From positions 1 through 7,538 of the IMG/VR virus record IMGVR_UViG_2529292734_000008: a stretch of DNA of 7,538 bases. One strand, 5' to 3'. How positions within the stretch are numbered: the first letter of the stretch is position 1; each line of letters begins with the position of its first letter. Below the pieces are notes generated by a model. That model ran no database searches. It saw only the letters and a program-made list of their open reading frames with translations, and was not told the origin of the DNA. The position numbers and the translations under genes were made by a program. The DNA comes from a virus. Its lineage: Duplodnaviria; Heunggongvirae; Uroviricota; Caudoviricetes. Shown here piece by piece: positions 1-7,538 of this stretch.

Positions 1-523
1 TTACCCGTTCTGTGCGGATCACTTTCAGGGCGCTGCTCACCAGTTCCAGTTGTTCTGCGCTGACTTCCCCCAGATAATCCAGCTCACCGCCACACTCCGG
101 GCAACAGCTTTCTTCAGGCTCCAGGCGGTATATCTCACGGGGGAGATGTGCCGGTAACGGACGACGATGGCGCGACTGTCGCAACTGGCGGGGAACCAGT
201 GGGTCATCCTCACGCCCACTGTAACGATCGCTTTCCTGCTCGCGTTGTTTCAGCAGGGCTTCAGCCTGTTCAACCTCACGACGCAGTTTTTCAGAACGGG
301 TTCCGAACAGCATCCGGCGCAGTTTTCTATCTGAGCCCGCAGATGCTCTATTTCTCGCTCATCTTCTTCGATCTTTTCTTCGGCACGTGCCAGTTGCAGA
401 GCGCAGGAAGGCCTCCGTCTCTTCAACCAGACTCAGTTGCTGGTCTTCCTGACGGAGGGCTTCAGCCTGCTCAGAGAGCAGCCTTTCCAGCTCAGCGATG
501 CGAATGAGGTATTTCTGACTCAT
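1..523 (-). CDS. tnpC: IS66-family transposase TnpC, N-terminal part (3' end outside window); reading frame appears interrupted
   Basis: ATG at 523-521 gives MSQKYLIRIAELERLLSEQAEALRQEDQQLSLVEETEAFLRSA. A coiled-coil segment LARAEEKIEEDEREIEHLRAQIE then lies in the +1 frame, and the long segment KLRRMLFGTRSEKLRREVEQAEALLKQ...CCPECGGELDYLGEVSAEQLELVSSALKVIRTERV returns to the ATG frame. Read straight from the ATG, the frame hits TGA (plus 359-361) after 54 codons. Confidence 0.75.
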
Positions 524-553
524 GGCCGTTTTTATAATCCGGCCCGGCGTTTT

Positions 554-904
554 TTACAACATTGTCAGTGCGTTAAGGCGGGATGTTTTTGGCTGACGCC
601 AGTCCAGCTTATCGAGGAGCATTGCCAGTTGCGAGCGGGTAATGGATATCTTACCGTCACGCACCGCAGGCCAGATAAACTGACCTTCCTCAAGGCGTTT
701 GGTGAACAGGCACAGACCATCAGCATCAGCCCACAGGATTTTAATCGTGTCTCCCCGTCGGCCACGGAAGATAAACAGGTGACCGGAGAAGGGGTTATCA
801 TCCAGCACATGCTGTATCTGCTCCCCCAGACCGTTGAAGGATTTACGCATATCAGTAACGCCGGCAACGAGCCAGATACGGGTACCTGATGGGAGTGAAA
901 TCAT
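554..904 (-). CDS. tnpB: IS66-family accessory protein TnpB (orf2)
   Basis: 116-aa ORF MISLPSGTRIWLVAGVTDMRKSFNGLGEQIQ...GHLFIFRGRRGDTIKILWADADGLCLFTKRLE, which matches the characteristic IS66 Orf2 sequence as I recall it. It sits between tnpA and tnpC. Confidence 0.85.
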   Translation of the reverse strand: MISLPSGTRIWLVAGVTDMRKSFNGLGEQIQHVLDDNPFSGHLFIFRGRRGDTIKILWADADGLCLFTKRLEEGQFIWPAVRDGKISITRSQLAMLLDKLDWRQPKTSRLNALTML

Positions 905-1338
905 CGTCCCTCCCGGTCAGCTCACGGATCAACACCGTGAGCAGCTCTGGTGAAGGATTTTCCAGCATCATTTTACCGTAATGGAATTCCACATGGCAGG
1001 AAGCTGCACAAGCAACTGATAATGCCTCCGGAGCAGGAGCATCTGTAGCACAGCGCGGGGGGTCGATAAGTTCCACTGGAACCAGAGTCGGAGAGGCCGG
1101 AAAAGATTGTGATACTGTAGGGCCTACAATAGTTGGAGGCATTCTACGAGAAAATACGTCCTTCTCTTTGCCAGAGGCGTAGCCATTTAAAAATCAGGTT
1201 GTTATCAACGCCATGTTCCCGGGCCAGTTGTGCAACATTGGCATTTGGTTTCGAAGCCAGTTCAACCATATGAAGTTTAAATTCATTAGAAAATATCCGG
1301 CGGGTTCCGGAGCGCCAGTCTGTAGGTTTATCCATCAA
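852..1338 (-). CDS. tnpA: IS66-family TnpA (orf1), present as two ORFs in different frames (1338-1144 and 1142-852); possibly frameshifted
   Basis: First ORF MMDKPTDWRSGTRRIFSNEFKLHMVELASKPNANVAQLAREHGVDNNLIFKWLRLWQREGRIFS (HTH-like) stops at TAG 1146-1144. Second ORF starts at ATG 1142 in another frame (MPPTIVGPTV...LLTVLIRELTGRDDDF...). The junction lies at the T4 run on the coding (minus) strand (A-run 1151-1154 on plus). Whether the native gene is continuous is from memory and unverified. Confidence 0.55.
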
Positions 1339-1449
1339 TAGAACTCCGTCTAATTTAGAAGGAGCTCTAATTTAGTCTGCAAGGAGCAGGTGTTACAGAC
1401 GGCATTGGCTTTACGCTTACGATTATTCATACTTCGTTTCTCCTCTTGA

Positions 1450-1839
1450 TCAGGCGGCTGCACCCGCCGTTTTCTCGTACTTACTGATAGTGATCTCGAC
1501 CTTCCCTTCCGGGATAACCGGTCCCCACTCCACCAGCATTCTTTTCACCTGACTGTCGTCTTCCCACACCCCCGCGTGGGTCAGGGCGTCAAACAGCGCC
1601 TTGTTATAGTTGTCCAGATCGCGGATCCTGTTATCCGGAGGAAACAACACGATCTCCACTGAAGCAGGTGCCGACGTTGGTTTCGGCAGACGACGTAACT
1701 GCTCAACTATTGCTGCGCACGCCGCGCTCTGGAATTTTCGCCCCGCCGCGCTTATCAGGCTCTTACCAGCAAACGCCCCTTTGTTGGGGTGTCGCCAGTA
1801 CGTGTTCACGCTGGGCGGAAAAGGCAGGATCAGCTTCAT
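1450..1839 (-). CDS. rusA: RusA-family Holliday junction resolvase (crossover junction endodeoxyribonuclease), lambdoid nin-region type
   Basis: 129-aa ORF with PPSVNTYWR...RIRDLDNYNKALFDALTHAGVWEDDSQV, resembling the RusA signature including the acidic RDLDN motif. Its ATG overlaps the stop of the upstream gene (ATGA). Confidence 0.85.
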   Translation of the reverse strand: MKLILPFPPSVNTYWRHPNKGAFAGKSLISAAGRKFQSAACAAIVEQLRRLPKPTSAPASVEIVLFPPDNRIRDLDNYNKALFDALTHAGVWEDDSQVKRMLVEWGPVIPEGKVEITISKYEKTAGAAA

Positions 1840-2162
1840 ACTTTCAGGCCCCTCTCATGTAACCAGTGGGTTGCACGCAGCCTTGCGTTTTCCTCACCGG
1901 CAAGCAGTGAGCGGATAATCCCGACCGCCTCGCTGTCGTCGTCCTTCACCGCGGTATGAAGCGTGATGCCCCGGGCCACGCCACGCTTTATCGTGATGAC
2001 GCCTTTTTTCTCCAGTGCGCGAAGATGCTCCACCGCTGCATTCACTGAACGGTATCCCAGCATGGTTGCCACCTCCTGATTGGTTGGCGGGAAGCCACGT
2101 TCTTTCTGATAAGAAATCAGCATATCCAGCACCTGCTGCTGGCATTGAGTTAACGTCGTCAT
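1836..2162 (-). CDS. LexA-like DNA-binding protein (LexA N-terminal winged-HTH domain only, no S24 peptidase domain)
   Basis: 108-aa ORF MTTLTQCQQQVLDMLISYQKERGFPPTNQEVATMLGYRSVNAAVEHLRALEKKGVITIKRGVARGITL aligns by eye with E. coli LexA residues 1-70 ([69 protein letters not shown]). The protein ends about 35 residues later with no Ser/Lys protease module. ATGA overlaps at both ends. Confidence 0.75.
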   Translation of the reverse strand: MTTLTQCQQQVLDMLISYQKERGFPPTNQEVATMLGYRSVNAAVEHLRALEKKGVITIKRGVARGITLHTAVKDDDSEAVGIIRSLLAGEENARLRATHWLHERGLKV

Positions 2163-2812
2163 GCCGCCATCTCCCTGACCAGTTTTTCTGCCTGCTGGCG
2201 AACCTGCGCCAGAAAGGCCTCACCACATGCCTCAAGTTCATCGCGCCCGATGTAGCTGATTGCCGGTCCCTTCCAGGTCTTGTCGAAAACAGCAATAGCA
2301 CCAGCGAAGAAAGCGCCTGTCGGCACCTGCTTCTCATCCTTCGGGATAAACCAGGCAGGCAGTTCAAAACCAATACGCCCGCGAATAAAAGCAATATGAT
2401 CTGCATCTTCCGGCCACCACACTTCGCTGGTGGCAGCTTTGATCAGGAAAACATAGCGCCCGCCTTTATCACGCATGGCACTGGCATGCTTCATGATGTA
2501 ACGCATGCCGGTGATGTATTGCCCCTCATGCTGGCTGGCGCGGCTGTATGGGGGATTACCAAAGGCAGCACCTTTAAGCTCCGCAAGGCGTTCTGACCAG
2601 TCATGCGCCAACGCGTTGTCTTCCGCCGTGTAATACGCAGCACATTTGGCGTTATCACCGTCAGTAAACAGATCCAGAACAAACGGGCCAAACAGAGTGT
2701 TAATTCCCCAGAAAATGTTGTCCGGCGTGCGCCACTGATCGCCCACTTCCTTCAGTTCATGGGCTGGTTTGTTCCGCAGTTCCGCCAGCGCCTGGCAATA
2801 TTTATTACTCAT
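2159..2812 (-). CDS. Phage N6-adenine DNA methyltransferase (Dam-like orphan MTase)
   Basis: ORF contains the motif-IV sequence FGNPPYS (NPPY) and an overall phage N-6-adenine MTase-like sequence. The likely start is ATG 2812-2810, overlapping the upstream stop as TAATG, with GGGGG just upstream. The ORF track extends to a GTG at 2845. Confidence 0.8.
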   Translation of the reverse strand: MSNKYCQALAELRNKPAHELKEVGDQWRTPDNIFWGINTLFGPFVLDLFTDGDNAKCAAYYTAEDNALAHDWSERLAELKGAAFGNPPYSRASQHEGQYITGMRYIMKHASAMRDKGGRYVFLIKAATSEVWWPEDADHIAFIRGRIGFELPAWFIPKDEKQVPTGAFFAGAIAVFDKTWKGPAISYIGRDELEACGEAFLAQVRQQAEKLVREMAA

Positions 2813-3306
2813 TAAGCCCCCACGTAATTCCCTGAGAGATACCACTCTTCACCTGATGCAGCCCGCTTACTGCTTTTCCGTAAACACAGTTCACGACGTG
2901 CCAGAAAATTGTTTCGTTCTGGCTGGGAGTGGCTTTCACGGAATGCCGCCATCCACACCGTTGCAGCACGACGGTATAAGCCCCTGGACTCCAGTTCTTC
3001 CGCCTGGCGGGTCAGGCACAAAATCACCCGCGGGTCGTTAGTGCCGACATAGAAATTGCGCACAGGTCTGGTTTCACGAACTGGTTGTGGTTCCGGATCC
3101 TGCGCTCTCTCAGTCAGGCGCGGGAAATGTCTGTGTGTATCTCCTTCACAACGGTGAGCCACACGCCCACTCTGACGTAACTTGCTTGCTGACTGCAGAA
3201 CGCGCTGCCGTGAGTAACCTGCAAAAGCATCCGCAATGTCTCCGGAAGTACAGCCCGGATGGGCTTCAATGAATTTCTGAACGTCATTCAAAAGACTCAT
3301 GCTCAC
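2812..3306 (-). CDS. Phage regulatory protein, winged-helix-like N-terminus with PerC-like C-terminal region (putative)
   Basis: 164-aa ORF translationally coupled at both ends (ATGA with the replication gene stop; TAATG with the MTase start). The C-terminal segment LESRGLYRRAATVWMAAF resembles the conserved core I recall for PerC/Pch-family activators; this assignment is from memory and is tentative. Confidence 0.55.
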   Translation of the reverse strand: MSMSLLNDVQKFIEAHPGCTSGDIADAFAGYSRQRVLQSASKLRQSGRVAHRCEGDTHRHFPRLTERAQDPEPQPVRETRPVRNFYVGTNDPRVILCLTRQAEELESRGLYRRAATVWMAAFRESHSQPERNNFLARRELCLRKSSKRAASGEEWYLSGNYVGA

Positions 3307-4244
3307 CCCCTGAATCCTGCCGGGATCTGGCTGTAGTCCACATTGTCGTAACTGGCTTTGAAGTACGGGTCTTCGCGTTTTTCTGTGTACGTGCTGACGG
3401 ACGGCGATAAGCGCAGGGAAAGCTCATCCCATTTTTCCCGCAGCTTCGACGGGCTGAGCACGTTACGGCACCAGAACGGATCGCGGCTGACGCGGCTGTA
3501 CATCTCGCAGATTTGTTTGTGAGTACGACCATCCTGCACACACATCAGGCGAATTTCGTTTGCCCAGGCTGTCCAGTTCGGTTCTTTGGGACGAACCACC
3601 TCGCCGTCACATTCGGCAGCCTGCTCGTACAGGGCGATGATTTTTTTCCAGAGCCACTGTGCGCAGGTCAAATCATCCTGCGTCCCCCACTGGCGCTTTT
3701 TAGGGCTGAATACAACCGCATCAGGATGGCGAGTTAAAAAATCCTGTTCAGCCGTCTGCGTGTCCGGTTGCGAAGCGTCCGGACGAGAAGGTTTTTTATC
3801 TGACGGATCATGTTTTGATTTTACTGACGGATCCCCGCCAGATTCTGACGGGTGAAAACCCGCTTTTTTGCCAGATTTCGACGCATCAAATTTTGACGGG
3901 TCAGATTTTGATGCGTCAGATTTTGACGGGTCAGAATCTGACAGTTGAGAAAATGCCGCTGCCTGAAGCTTCGCAACGTTAAGCTGATAAACATTCGACG
4001 CATTGCGGTTACCCTGGCGACGCGCCTTACGCGTTAACCAGCCTTCTGCTTCCAGCCGTGCGATAGCCGTTCTGACGGTACTCATCCCCGCGCCAATCTG
4101 ACGGGCAATGGTTTCAATTGATGGCCAGCACACACCTTCGTCATTACTGAAATCAGCCAGGCGGGCCATAATTGCCACGCTGGATAACTTCATGCCTGAT
4201 GCAGCGCAACCATCCCATACATAGCCGGTTAATTTAGTGCTCAT
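3303..4244 (-). CDS. Phage replication initiation protein (lambda O-like function): N-terminal HTH DNA-binding domain, low-complexity linker, C-terminal domain
   Basis: 313-aa ORF. The N-terminus ([70 protein letters not shown]) is typical of phage replication-initiator HTH domains. The central linker SDSDPSKSDASKSDPSKFDASKS is encoded by tandem DNA repeats. SD GAGGT lies 5 nt upstream of the ATG. Confidence 0.8.
   Translation of the reverse strand: MSTKLTGYVWDGCAASGMKLSSVAIMARLADFSNDEGVCWPSIETIARQIGAGMSTVRTAIARLEAEGWLTRKARRQGNRNASNVYQLNVAKLQAAAFSQLSDSDPSKSDASKSDPSKFDASKSGKKAGFHPSESGGDPSVKSKHDPSDKKPSRPDASQPDTQTAEQDFLTRHPDAVVFSPKKRQWGTQDDLTCAQWLWKKIIALYEQAAECDGEVVRPKEPNWTAWANEIRLMCVQDGRTHKQICEMYSRVSRDPFWCRNVLSPSKLREKWDELSLRLSPSVSTYTEKREDPYFKASYDNVDYSQIPAGFRG
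3798..3950. repeat. Putative replication origin: about 8 iterons with 10-bp core TGAYGSRTCA inside the replication-initiator gene
   Basis: Core copies at about 3801, 3825, 3846, 3880, 3895, 3910, 3925 and 3940, the last four at exact 15-bp spacing (GATTT-TGACGGGTCA). Flanking T-rich tracts at 3791-3797 and 3864-3869. The position matches the lambda arrangement where ori lies within the O gene linker. Confidence 0.6.
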
Positions 4245-4592
4245 GACCGACCTCTATTTCCCTGAATTTACGACGAAACTGTTCGAGCGGACTGAAGCAT
4301 TCATGCTCATAACCTTCGCGGAGGTAGATAACCCGTTGTGTTTCCGGCTCCCAACGAATGACTCTGACGGGCACTCCGTAGTGATCTTTGAACCAGCGGT
4401 TAACTTGTCGCAAAGGACTGTCTCCTTCTGCCGGTTGAAATCACCCACAGCCCACTCTGCAAAGCTGTGGGTTACAATTTCCCTGTCACCTGGTACATTC
4501 ACTGCATAGCAATATTCCACCTTCGCTTTTCCACCCGGAACAGGAAGCGCAATCAGTTGCGAGCGACGGTAGTGTGTTGTTAAACTGTTCAT
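4234..4592 (-). CDS. Hypothetical phage protein, apparently frameshifted (N-terminal part in one frame, protein-like C-terminal part in another)
   Basis: The track ORF 4592-4254 starts [51 protein letters not shown] and then degenerates into a Ser/Thr-rich tail. From 4440 down to TAA 4236-4234 a second frame encodes [68 protein letters not shown]. The start overlaps the upstream gene stop as ATGA. Confidence 0.5.
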
Positions 4593-4957
4593 GCGTTAGT
4601 TTCTCCACAGTCACGACACGCCACGGCGCCCGGAGCTGCACACTCGCGGGCGTCATTACTTTCTGAAATGCAAAAAATTTTGTAGACCAGTGCTGCATGC
4701 TCCTGCAGCTTCGAAATTGAGAGGTAGAGCTCGTCATTAATTGCTGTCTTCTCATGCGGTTCCACTACACCGTCTTCGATTGCTGAACGAATCTGTTTTG
4801 AATAACTGCCGATCTGTTCAATGACTTCCAGCAGACGCTGGTTAATATCGGCGTTGTCCACATCCTCGACGTCAGGAAGAGACACAAAGACGCCATTTGC
4901 AGACTGCGCCACAGCATCAGCAATGAAGTGAGTTCCACCAGCACGTTGCAAAATCAT
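4589..4957 (-). CDS. Hypothetical phage early protein (122 aa, predicted helical)
   Basis: ORF with ATG at 4957. Its stop overlaps the downstream gene start (ATGA at 4592-4589). It lies between the cII-like and replication genes in the same operon. No family recognised. Confidence 0.55.
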
Positions 4958-4978
4958 TGCCCATCCCAGCGGGAAAAT

Positions 4979-5185
4979 CTAATCGCCATCGGCACGAAGG
5001 CGGTTAAATAATGCGTTCTCTGTTACATCCAGCCAGTCAGCAGCTTCAGCGTAACCCCCCGGCAACGCTGCGATAGTTTTTCTGACAGCTTTCACGTACC
5101 ACTCAGGCTGTTTGTCTACTTTCCAGTGATGCTTACCCACGGTTAGCCTCATCGTTCTGTGGTTTCTGTTAATCGATTTATCCAT
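4979..5185 (-). CDS. CII-like / YdaT-like HTH regulatory protein (putative), ending at an amber codon
   Basis: HTH-like segment GYAEAADWLDVTENALFNRLR at the C-terminus, in the position of lambda cII (immediately downstream of cro). The start is uncertain: ATG 5185 overlaps the cro stop, with alternatives at 5197 and 5152; none has a strong SD. The ORF ends at TAG 4981-4979. Confidence 0.45.
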   Translation of the reverse strand: MDKSINRNHRTMRLTVGKHHWKVDKQPEWYVKAVRKTIAALPGGYAEAADWLDVTENALFNRLRADGD

Positions 5186-5378
5186 TAGATTTTTCATAAA
5201 GCTCAGGTTTAAATGGCAACCGTCCGCAAGTTCTATATGCAGCTTCTGCTGCACGTCCTTTTGGAATTAACTGGCCCGGACGGTTTCGCCACTGATAAAC
5301 GGCTTCAGTTGTTATGCCGAAAAAAGCAGCAACTTTCTCAATACTGCCGAAGTAGCTTTCGATATCGTCAGTTGTCAT
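5178..5378 (-). CDS. Cro-like transcriptional regulator (small HTH protein)
   Basis: 66-aa ORF MTTDDIESYFGSIEKVAAFFGITTEAVYQWRNRPGQLIPKGRAAEAAYRTCGRLPF with an HTH motif (VAAFFGITTEAVYQWR). SD GGAGGG lies just upstream of ATG 5378. It is transcribed divergently from the repressor gene. Confidence 0.7.
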   Translation of the reverse strand: MTTDDIESYFGSIEKVAAFFGITTEAVYQWRNRPGQLIPKGRAAEAAYRTCGRLPFKPELYEKSNG

Positions 5379-5388
5379 ACGCCCTCCA

Positions 5389-5455
5389 AACTAAGTTTTA
5401 TTAGATGCTAATTACAAATCTATCTTTGGTCAATAAAAACTAAGATTACTTAGTA
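5389..5455. promoter_or_regulatory. Divergent immunity control region (OR-like): two 14-bp inverted-repeat operator candidates and a PR-like promoter for cro
   Basis: CTAAGTTTTATTAG (5391-5404) and CTAAGATTACTTAG (5440-5453; perfect 5-bp arms CTAAG/CTTAG). On the minus strand, -35 TTGACC (5433-5428), a 17-bp spacer and -10 TAGCAT (5410-5405) precede the cro ATG. The first operator overlaps the -10/+1 region. Confidence 0.55.
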
Positions 5456-5475
5456 ATTAAAGAAATGGTGCTCCT

Positions 5476-5985
5476 ATGGAAACGGTTGGTCAGCGTATAA
5501 AAGCTCTGAGAAGAGTTACCAGAACGTCCCAGAAAGAATTGGGTAAATTTTGTGGAGTAAGCGACGTTGCTGTGGGGTACTGGGAGAAAGACATCAATAC
5601 CCCTGGTGGGGAGGCACTTTCGAAATTAGCGAAGTTCTTCAATACGTCAATAGATTACATTCTTTATGGTGCTGAGTTTGAAGGCAAACTCGTCACAAAC
5701 ATGCGCAGAGTTCCTGTAATATCGTGGGTTCAGGCTGGGCAGTTTACTGAGTGCAGGGCAGCAGAAGTGTTTAGTGAAGTGGACAAGTGGGTAGATACAT
5801 CATTAAAGATTGGTGATAACTCATTTGCATTAGAGGTTAAAGGTGACTCCATGACTAACCCTAATGGCCTCCCAACAATACCAGAAGGCGCAACAGTGAT
5901 TGTAGATCCAGATGCAGAACCTCGTCATGGAAAAATAGTCATCGCTCGACTTGATGGAACAAACGAAGCTACAGTAAAAAATTAG
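5476..5985 (+). CDS. CI-type prophage repressor (XRE HTH + LexA-like S24 peptidase domain), truncated by a frameshift; remaining C-terminal codons continue in another frame to 6101
   Basis: N-terminal HTH (QKELGKFCGVSDVAVGYWEKD) and S24 catalytic Ser motif GDSM. The ORF ends ...ARLDGTNEATVKN*. The adjacent frame encodes KKLVIDGPQKFLVPLNPRYPNIPINGNCLIIGVVKGVQYEL* (to TAA 6099-6101), which matches the lambda CI C-terminus pattern [35 protein letters not shown]. The break is in the A6 run 5976-5981. Confidence 0.85.
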   Translation: METVGQRIKALRRVTRTSQKELGKFCGVSDVAVGYWEKDINTPGGEALSKLAKFFNTSIDYILYGAEFEGKLVTNMRRVPVISWVQAGQFTECRAAEVFSEVDKWVDTSLKIGDNSFALEVKGDSMTNPNGLPTIPEGATVIVDPDAEPRHGKIVIARLDGTNEATVKN

Positions 5986-6115
5986 TCATCGATGGCCCTC
6001 AAAAGTTTTTAGTGCCATTAAATCCTCGGTATCCCAACATCCCTATCAATGGTAATTGCCTTATCATTGGTGTAGTCAAAGGAGTTCAATACGAACTCTA
6101 AGACCTCTCTTCTCT

Positions 6116-6183
6116 AACTAAGGCACCGAACTAAGAAAAGTTTGGTGTTTTCTCTTGCCATAATAACTAAGTTAAGTTAGATT
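6116..6183 (+). promoter_or_regulatory. OL/PL-like element: repeated AACTAAG half-sites, a 14-bp operator-like site and a sigma70-like promoter pointing rightward
   Basis: AACTAAG at 6116-6122, 6129-6135 and 6165-6171. CTAAGTTAAGTTAG at 6167-6180 matches the OR motif. -35 TTGCCA (6155-6160), 17-bp spacer, -10 TAGATT (6178-6183). Confidence 0.45.
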
Positions 6184-6261
6184 TTATGTCAAAGATAACG
6201 AACAGGCAGGACGCCCACGAAGTAGCCGCCTGGGGCATATGAAGTCCAGGATGATTCGTTA

Positions 6262-6290
6262 GCAACAAAAAAGCGCCCTACAGGACGCTT
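6262..6290 (-). terminator. Intrinsic terminator-like hairpin with U-tract, minus-strand sense
   Basis: Minus-strand RNA would read AAGCGUCC-UGUA-GGGCGCUU followed by UUUUUUGUUG (stem 6271-6290, A-run 6267-6272 on plus). On the plus strand the same hairpin has a C-A mismatch and no downstream U-tract. Confidence 0.5.
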
Positions 6291-6291
6291 A

Positions 6292-6303
6292 GCTCTTTAA
6301 CAA
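6292..6303 (+). promoter_or_regulatory. boxA-like antitermination element (12/12 match to the rrn-type boxA core GCTCTTTAACAA)
   Basis: GCTCTTTAACAA at 6292-6303, immediately after a hairpin and about 45 nt upstream of the ATG of the first plus-strand gene downstream of the PL-like promoter. A weak AU-rich hairpin CAAGTAACTGATAACTTG follows at 6319-6336. Confidence 0.45.
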
Positions 6304-6348
6304 TCTGGTCCCCATCAACAAGTAACTGATAACTTGAGGAGATGTGAA

Positions 6349-6555
6349 ATGCACAAAACAGAACCCAAAATCGTCGCGCCTGGCTACACAGATGAGGAAA
6401 TTTATGAGTGGATGACAAAGAAGCTGGCAGCTATAAACCAGCTTCGTGAAGTGCTGTCTTATCGACAGGAAACAATAGACTCCTTAAAAAAACTGGATCA
6501 GGAAATCACGGTTTTATCACAGGATGTTACTTTAGATATTGTGCAGACAAATTAG
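6349..6555 (+). CDS. Hypothetical small protein (68 aa), first gene of the rightward PL-like transcript; AT-rich accessory gene
   Basis: ATG at 6349 preceded by a strong SD GAGGAG (6336-6341). The track ORF begins at an earlier in-frame ATG at 6334. The translation MHKTEPKIVAPGYTDEEIYEWMTKKLAAINQLREVLSYRQETIDSLKKLDQEITVLSQDVTLDIVQTN is predicted helical and acidic. No family recognised. Confidence 0.6.
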   Translation: MHKTEPKIVAPGYTDEEIYEWMTKKLAAINQLREVLSYRQETIDSLKKLDQEITVLSQDVTLDIVQTN

Positions 6556-6961
6556 GATCCCATTCATTTTCGTCAAAATCATCAAAGTGATGAATTTGTG
6601 ATCTCCAGTCTCGATAATCTAAAAATTTCTGGGCGGTTACGCTTATTTTATCAAGTGTGAGTTCATCCTGAATTGAAAGAAGAAGTTCATCAAATTTCAT
6701 CTCATTAATCTGTTTTGGCATCCAGTGATGCTTCATCAGAATAAGGTGAACCAGAGCCTTTTTCCCATTCAACTGATTATAGGGAGTGCCGAATTTCTTC
6801 CGGTGCTCATGTAAGACAAGGTCCAAAAGAGTAAGTAATGTTGCCCTTGATTCAACTTTGCTTATTTCGACTGATGACACTACCCCACTGATTTCAATGC
6901 CCCGATACTTTCCAACATTTTCACAGTGGGATTTGTACAGCGTATAGATATTACCGGACAT
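6527..6961 (-). CDS. Hypothetical protein (144 aa), moron-like accessory gene transcribed convergently to the PL-like operon
   Basis: ORF with SD AAGGA (revcomp of plus 6962-6975) upstream of ATG 6961. The region looks AT-rich compared with the flanking phage backbone. Its 3' end overlaps the 68-aa gene by 29 bp. No family recognised. Confidence 0.7.
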   Translation of the reverse strand: MSGNIYTLYKSHCENVGKYRGIEISGVVSSVEISKVESRATLLTLLDLVLHEHRKKFGTPYNQLNGKKALVHLILMKHHWMPKQINEMKFDELLLSIQDELTLDKISVTAQKFLDYRDWRSQIHHFDDFDENEWDPNLSAQYLK

Positions 6962-6976
6962 TTCTTTTCCTTTTGC

Positions 6977-7028
6977 GTTGTTGGGGATAACCAGATTAAC
7001 CGAATCCTTGTTGTTGGGGAATAACCAG
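6977..7028. repeat. Two 18-19 bp direct repeats GTTGTTGGGGA(A)TAACCAG separated by about 15 bp, in the upstream region of the 144-aa gene
   Basis: Copy 1 at 6977-6994 and copy 2 at 7010-7028, nearly identical, located 16-67 bp upstream of the minus-strand ATG at 6961. Confidence 0.5.
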
Positions 7029-7245
7029 GTCCACCTCGCCTGATGTGGCTAAAAGCAGGCACATAACAGCTAAGTATTTTCAACCAGAGAGAATCCTTAG
7101 CGTTGTGGTGAATGCGGCTCAGCGCACGCGGGTTAAGGTTGAGGCTGACAGTCGACCTTCTGTGGATACCCACCCGCCTGGTGTGCAACCTTCGCCAGGC
7201 ACCGGGAGGCACCCGGCACCACAACTTTATGCTGTGTGTAGTCTT

Positions 7246-7292
7246 GGCGGTACCAGCTTGTACCCTTGCTTCCGGCTGGTACCGTCCTTTTT
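7246..7292 (+). terminator. Rho-independent terminator-like hairpin (10-bp perfect stem CGGTACCAGC/GCTGGTACCG, 17-nt loop, T5 tract)
   Basis: Stem 7248-7257 pairs with 7275-7284, followed by TTTTT at 7288-7292 on the plus strand. Confidence 0.6.
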
Positions 7293-7297
7293 ACAAA

Positions 7298-7379
7298 ACA
7301 GAGAAGAGCATCACCGGACGACGGGCTCATAACCCAATCCATCCGGGCGGCAGTCACCGCAGGTGTTCTTCTCTGTTTT
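7298..7379 (+). other. Long-range helix (about 15 bp including G-U pairs) enclosing about 49 nt, followed by a UUU run; structured leader element
   Basis: 7298-7312 pairs with 7362-7376 (ACAGAGAAGAGCATC / GGTGTTCTTCTCTGT). It lies about 50 nt upstream of the next gene's ATG. Confidence 0.35.
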
Positions 7380-7429
7380 GTGGAGAAACTAACCGACCTT
7401 GCAGGGTCGATATGATGAGGAGCAGCAAA

Positions 7430-7538
7430 ATGGCTAGCGAACGCAGTACTGATGTGCAGGCATTTATCGGGGAGCTGGACGGCGGCGTATTTGAAACCAA
7501 AATCGGCGCAGTTCTCAGTGAAGTCGCTTCCGGTGTGA
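7430..7538 (+). CDS. Hypothetical protein, 5' partial view (continues beyond window end)
   Basis: ATG 7430 with SD GAGGAG (7417-7422) 8 nt upstream. Translation MASERSTDVQAFIGELDGGVFETKIGAVLSEVASGV... is open to the window end. No family recognised. Confidence 0.55.
   Translation, partial: MASERSTDVQAFIGELDGGVFETKIGAVLSEVASGV

Follow-up and report, generated by a model that had tools for sequence, protein, structure and literature searches.

The CI repressor of phage lambda and the C2 repressor of phage P22 are LexA-like, self-cleaving proteins of MEROPS family S24. The repressor gene described here shares their HTH_3 domain, their C-terminal domain, the Ala-Gly cleavage site and the catalytic Ser and Lys residues, and, as in these phages, it is transcribed in the opposite direction to cro and flanked on either side by half-site repeats. 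It lies in a window of 7,538 nucleotides (the whole stretch of DNA that was analysed), identical in sequence to all of contig AIHL01000003.1 in GCA_000250435.2, a draft assembly of E. coli DEC14B. The early region of this prophage matches the lambdoid phages vB_EcoS-569R4, SfII, SfIV and mEp460. Fimbrial genes and a gene for a response regulator adjoin the prophage in relatives, joined in E. coli D6 by intD and a tRNA-Arg gene; this is presumably the argU/DLP12 insertion site. The following features of the window are relevant to the state of its repressor gene.

1 to 1420, minus strand: partial ISEc47 (IS66 family: tnpA, tnpB and the start of tnpC), inserted 10 nt into a KilA-N gene, with the junction at 1420/1421
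4589 to 5140, minus strand: ymfL (CII-like, Phage_CP76), with a stop codon at 4979-4981; position 4981 is A where E. coli D6 has G
5178 to 5378, minus strand: cro-like gene of the P22_Cro family, 66 aa, divergent from cI
5379 to 5475, no strand assigned: cro-cI intergenic control region, with AACTAAG half-sites at 5389 and 5438 and the palindrome ACTAAG-ATTA-CTTAGT at 5439-5454; putative OR
5476 to 5985, plus strand: cI-type repressor reading frame as written, 169 aa, with HTH_3 and positions 1-80 of the 116 of Peptidase_S24, ending in ATVKN and a stop codon
5572 to 5985, plus strand: gene call of the source record, EHX90490.1, "peptidase S24-like family protein", 137 aa from an internal GTG at 5572, ending in ATVKN
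5976 to 5981, plus strand: tract of six A's (A6), with seven (A7) in the three closest relatives and in all 512 complete E. coli genomes that contain the gene
5976 to 6101, plus strand: continuation in the -1 frame, KKLVIDG...YEL followed by a stop codon, corresponding to the C-terminal 41 residues of the 208-aa repressor and aligning with lambda CI residues ~192-229
6102 to 6171, no strand assigned: region just 3' of cI, with AACTAAG half-sites at 6116, 6129 and 6165; putative OL

The repressor and its interrupted reading frame

The N-terminal part of the protein carries the Pfam domain HTH_3 (residues 17-62, E about 1e-9) and matches the N-terminal domain structures of P22 C2 (E about 5e-10). 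The C-terminal part is split. The 169-aa product matches only positions 1-80 of the 116-position Pfam model Peptidase_S24, whereas one extra A in the tract yields a 208-aa HTH and S24 repressor which covers positions 1-115 (E 9e-28), such that a complete Peptidase_S24 domain is absent from the product as written and is present only in the A7-restored reading. The restored protein matches the structures of the C-terminal domain of lambda CI (lambda residues 101-229) with an E value of about 1e-27, and it is identical at 208 of 208 residues to WP_000450737.1 of E. coli D6, a protein annotated as LexA-family and found under this annotation in hundreds of genomes. An initial sequence-only reading of this DNA had described a CI/LexA-type repressor split at its KK codons, in which an A7 tract would restore a product of about 208 aa. 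Both statements hold, the former being backed by Pfam and by alignment with lambda CI and P22 C2, and the latter by the identity with WP_000450737.1. By its domains and alignments, the gene is an ordinary and already annotated CI-type immunity repressor of a lambdoid prophage, with nothing new about it.

The codons at the break read GCT ACA GTA AAA AAT TAG, with the TAG stop at 5983-5985. Translation of the -1 frame from position 5976 gives KKLVIDGPQKFLVPLNPRYPNIPINGNCLIIGVVKGVQYEL up to a stop codon that ends at 6101. Re-reading of the sequence thus agrees with the earlier description of an in-frame product ending in ATVKN and of a next frame that goes on to the C-terminus. Chance is not in question here: the tract simply comprises the last A of a GTA codon and two AAA lysine codons, and there are 13 mononucleotide runs of at least 6 bases in the window. 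The proposed placement of the break in the region of the catalytic lysine is correct insofar as the frame is split at the KK codons, but the catalytic residue itself is retained: K168, the first lysine of the pair (AAA at 5977-5979), aligns to the residue mutated in the lambda CI K192A structures and is kept in the product as written, in which only the second lysine is changed to N, followed directly by the stop codon. The catalytic serine (S125, in GDSM) and the Ala-Gly self-cleavage site (A87-G88, in VQAGQF, aligned to lambda VQAGMF) are upstream of the stop and are kept as well. The source-record call EHX90490.1, which is devoid of the HTH domain, arose in annotation as a consequence of the broken frame.

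The motif AACTAAG occurs 5 times in the window, against 0.68 copies expected, and all copies are located either between cro and cI or immediately behind cI; one of them is included in the palindrome ACTAAGATTACTTAGT at 5439-5454. These repeats probably serve as operator half-sites for this immunity type. The reading frames for the replication protein, Dam methylase, RusA and Cro are intact. A short second LexA-related gene (1836-2162, minus strand, 108 aa), with a LexA_DNA_bind domain only and devoid of an S24 domain, is flanked by the genes for Dam methylase and RusA and is conserved in all relatives seen.

Two other genes of the prophage are disrupted. The KilA-N gene is interrupted by ISEc47 at a junction that is also present in the draft contig AIGT01000006.1, and this insertion is therefore considered real; the gene is intact in AIHM01000024.1 and in E. 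coli D6. The nonsense codon in ymfL is a real, inherited change, since the same 53-aa ymfL fragment is called on at least 5 other contigs. In another lineage, represented by the ST131 strain Ecol_AZ146, ymfL is annotated as frameshifted.

Closest relatives and tract length in public genomes

Close relatives of the window were found by using the 53-aa ymfL fragment as a tag.

AIGT01000006.1 (sister draft): same ISEc47 junction and same ymfL stop; A7; 8 differences over all 7538 bases
AIHM01000024.1: no IS in the KilA-N gene; A7; differs at 2534 and in the A tract, over 1421-7538
Logan ERR4899355: no IS in the KilA-N gene; A7; differs at 2534 and in the A tract, over 1421-7538

The cI tract of E. 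coli D6 is also A7. The differences between the window and AIGT01000006.1 consist of 3 substitutions (at 134, 448 and 2534) and 5 one-base indels, and all 5 indels are located in mononucleotide runs (window/sister: T4/T5 at 322, TT/T at 394, C3/C4 at 907, A4/A3 at 1151, and A6/A7 at 5976-5981). At the six positions within the IS element, the sister contig agrees with an independent copy of ISEc47, and at the two positions outside it with E. coli D6, the AIHM01000024.1 contig and Logan ERR4899355. All eight differences are thus private to the DEC14B contig, the covering references siding with the sister at each of them. The private substitution at 2534, located in the Dam methylase gene, is a G in the window and an A in E. 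coli D6, in both sister drafts and in two Logan contigs. Each of the five indels breaks an open reading frame (tnpC twice, tnpA twice, and cI), and those at 322, 394, 907 and 1151 form two offsetting pairs (-1/+1) that are absent from both the sister contig and the independent ISEc47 copy. These four changes provide an internal control for the type of error made in this assembly. A mixture of gains and losses in which run-length changes outnumber substitutions by five to three is typical of homopolymer miscalling, and not of divergence between near-identical strains.

A 91-base query containing the A6 tract was used to survey 5426 complete E. coli genomes, 512 of which contain this stretch of cI. 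An ungapped match to the query was found in none of these 512 genomes. The identity of 511 of them falls in the 95-99% band, corresponding to about one gapped base against the 91-base query, and the 30 matches listed all share 98.9% identity with it and align 92 subject bases to its 91, which amounts to one extra base. Every match listed is annotated as an intact LexA-family protein. Natural termination at ATVKN, which the sequence-only reading had held up, together with reads supporting A6, as evidence that would speak against a broken gene, is rejected, all annotated homologues seen being 208 aa in length.

The exact 169-aa product is found elsewhere, but rarely: on 11 contigs, compared to at least 1000 for the 208-aa protein. 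Six of these 11 contigs belong to a single set of assemblies (GCA_0532916xx), which relative to a complete ST131 genome display 1-4 substitutions along with 30-39 one-base indels in each 12.8 kb. Apart from two, these indels are homopolymer deletions. This is evidently plain undercalling of run lengths. The set consists of six chromosome-scale assemblies of one strain, in which many prophage genes are fragmented and from which false truncated proteins have been seeded into protein collections. A further A6 carrier, ERR4592251, has two additional homopolymer deletions in 1.4 kb. The Logan carrier SRR2070766, in turn, shows no indel relative to the window over 5.4 kb; the best complete-genome matches of a second Logan A6 carrier and of this one, at 98.4% and 99.4%, are too distant to part errors from divergence. 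An A8 (+1) form, with a product of 193 aa, was detected on 13 + 2 contigs. With similarly low frequencies, the A6 and A8 forms look like noise rather than like a selected allele.

Origin of the six-base tract

Of the options that the sequence-only reading had left side by side, a homopolymer sequencing error is favoured, because the DEC14B contig has four other private one-base indels, all of them in its IS element, the closest relatives have A7, and none of the 512 complete genomes with the gene has A6. The tract very probably has seven A's in reality and was called one base short in a draft contig prone to errors. Two marks of such an error are found, namely a change private to one assembly and other run-length changes in that same assembly. 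Strain DEC14B would then carry an intact 208-aa repressor. The identity of the gene, the A7 state of all relatives and the other private homopolymer indels of the contig are shown directly, whereas we infer that A6 reflects a miscall and not a mutation private to DEC14B, and likewise that operators and mechanism are as in the family: as in lambda and P22, repressor dimers bound to the operators would keep the lytic promoters off, and self-cleavage stimulated by RecA would relieve repression. The DEC drafts were reportedly made by 454 pyrosequencing, a point that carries no weight in this argument. Two points run against a miscall: apart from the A tract, the 6.1 kb of unique prophage sequence contain no indel, and the other four indels are all located in a multi-copy IS element, where piled-up reads from different copies could raise the local error rate.

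The same isolation of the A tract in 6.1 kb of unique sequence speaks for DEC14B having undergone a real and recent one-base deletion, from A7 to A6, by replication slippage. Its repressor gene would then be a pseudogene in a decaying prophage, encoding a CI cut short at 169 aa, with the last third of its S24 domain missing. Runs of seven A's are natural hot spots for slippage, and the A6 form occurs in several different prophage backgrounds. At least one of its carriers, SRR2070766, shows no indel relative to the window over 5.4 kb. Decay of this prophage is real in itself, since ISEc47 in the KilA-N gene, upstream of Q, and the nonsense codon in ymfL are both common to other assemblies; given these two lesions, relaxed selection on cI is conceivable. 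To this extent the pseudogene option of the sequence-only reading finds support. Nevertheless, the change at cI is one of five private homopolymer indels in a single draft contig, and relatives which, apart from the A tract, are one substitution away over 1421-7538 have A7. The absence of A6 from the 512 complete genomes points in the same direction, and most of the other A6 carriers are demonstrably noisy assemblies. Moreover, with the replication-protein, Dam methylase, RusA and cro frames intact, a host whose prophage lost its repressor would probably suffer, by analogy with lambda. A real deletion is thus an unlikely, minority explanation; if it did occur, it would leave a prophage devoid of its immunity repressor, a common and unremarkable step of prophage decay.

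It is also formally conceivable that the tract is a functional switch, either phase-variable or acting through -1 ribosomal slippage on A_AAA_AAT or through transcriptional slippage, with some full-length CI being made. The heptamer fits the X_XXY_YYZ consensus, a -1 slip of tRNA-Lys on it would yield exactly the wild-type protein, and both A6 and A8 forms are present in public data. The split arrangement is not conserved, however, being absent from all 512 complete genomes and found on 11 contigs, whereas the intact protein occurs on at least 1000, and forms of deviating length are concentrated in noisy assemblies. Neither of the stimulatory elements looked for beside the slippery heptamer was found: there is no stimulatory RNA structure downstream, where the predicted fold of 80 nt is not superior to that of shuffled sequences (z-score -0.53), and inspection of the upstream sequence revealed no Shine-Dalgarno-like element. 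A run of six A's is also shorter than those known to support efficient transcriptional slippage. Programmed frameshifting is rejected for this lack of conservation and of downstream structure, and slipped-strand variation, the other option of the sequence-only reading, is unsupported, with no A6 among the complete genomes and off-length forms mostly in noisy assemblies; a functional switch of any kind is extremely improbable. It is tempting to speculate that the A7 tract over the KK codons is a real slippage hot spot, that rare cells with A6 or A8 would lose repressor function, contributing to spontaneous induction or to inactivation of the prophage, and that the A6 form would leak traces of wild-type CI through -1 slippage, but we regard this scenario as highly doubtful.

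With the homopolymer undercall as the preferred explanation, the case calls for caution in the use of draft genomes, as one miscalled base has produced an apparent repressor pseudogene together with an odd 137-aa "peptidase S24-like" gene call, and other noisy assemblies have brought the same false truncated protein into public protein collections as well.

Comparison with known systems

In the A-rich slippery heptamer at its frame junction, the window resembles dnaX, with its -1 frameshifting on A_AAA_AAG, and the contingency loci subject to phase variation. Unlike in those systems, the split is not conserved, downstream structure is absent, the tract is short, and the wild type is a plain in-frame gene. 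The likeness is closer with the homopolymer miscalls of draft or unpolished assemblies obtained by pyrosequencing or from long reads: here, too, a single base is changed in a run of seven, with four more such changes in the contig, and the same false 169-aa product is encountered elsewhere in assemblies in which homopolymer deletions number 30-39 per 12.8 kb. Compared with known miscalls, the error proposed here is derived from sequence comparison, and not from reads. As for lambda CI and P22 C2, the repressor as written differs from them in that its last 39 residues are out of frame, whereas with A7 it would not differ from them in kind.
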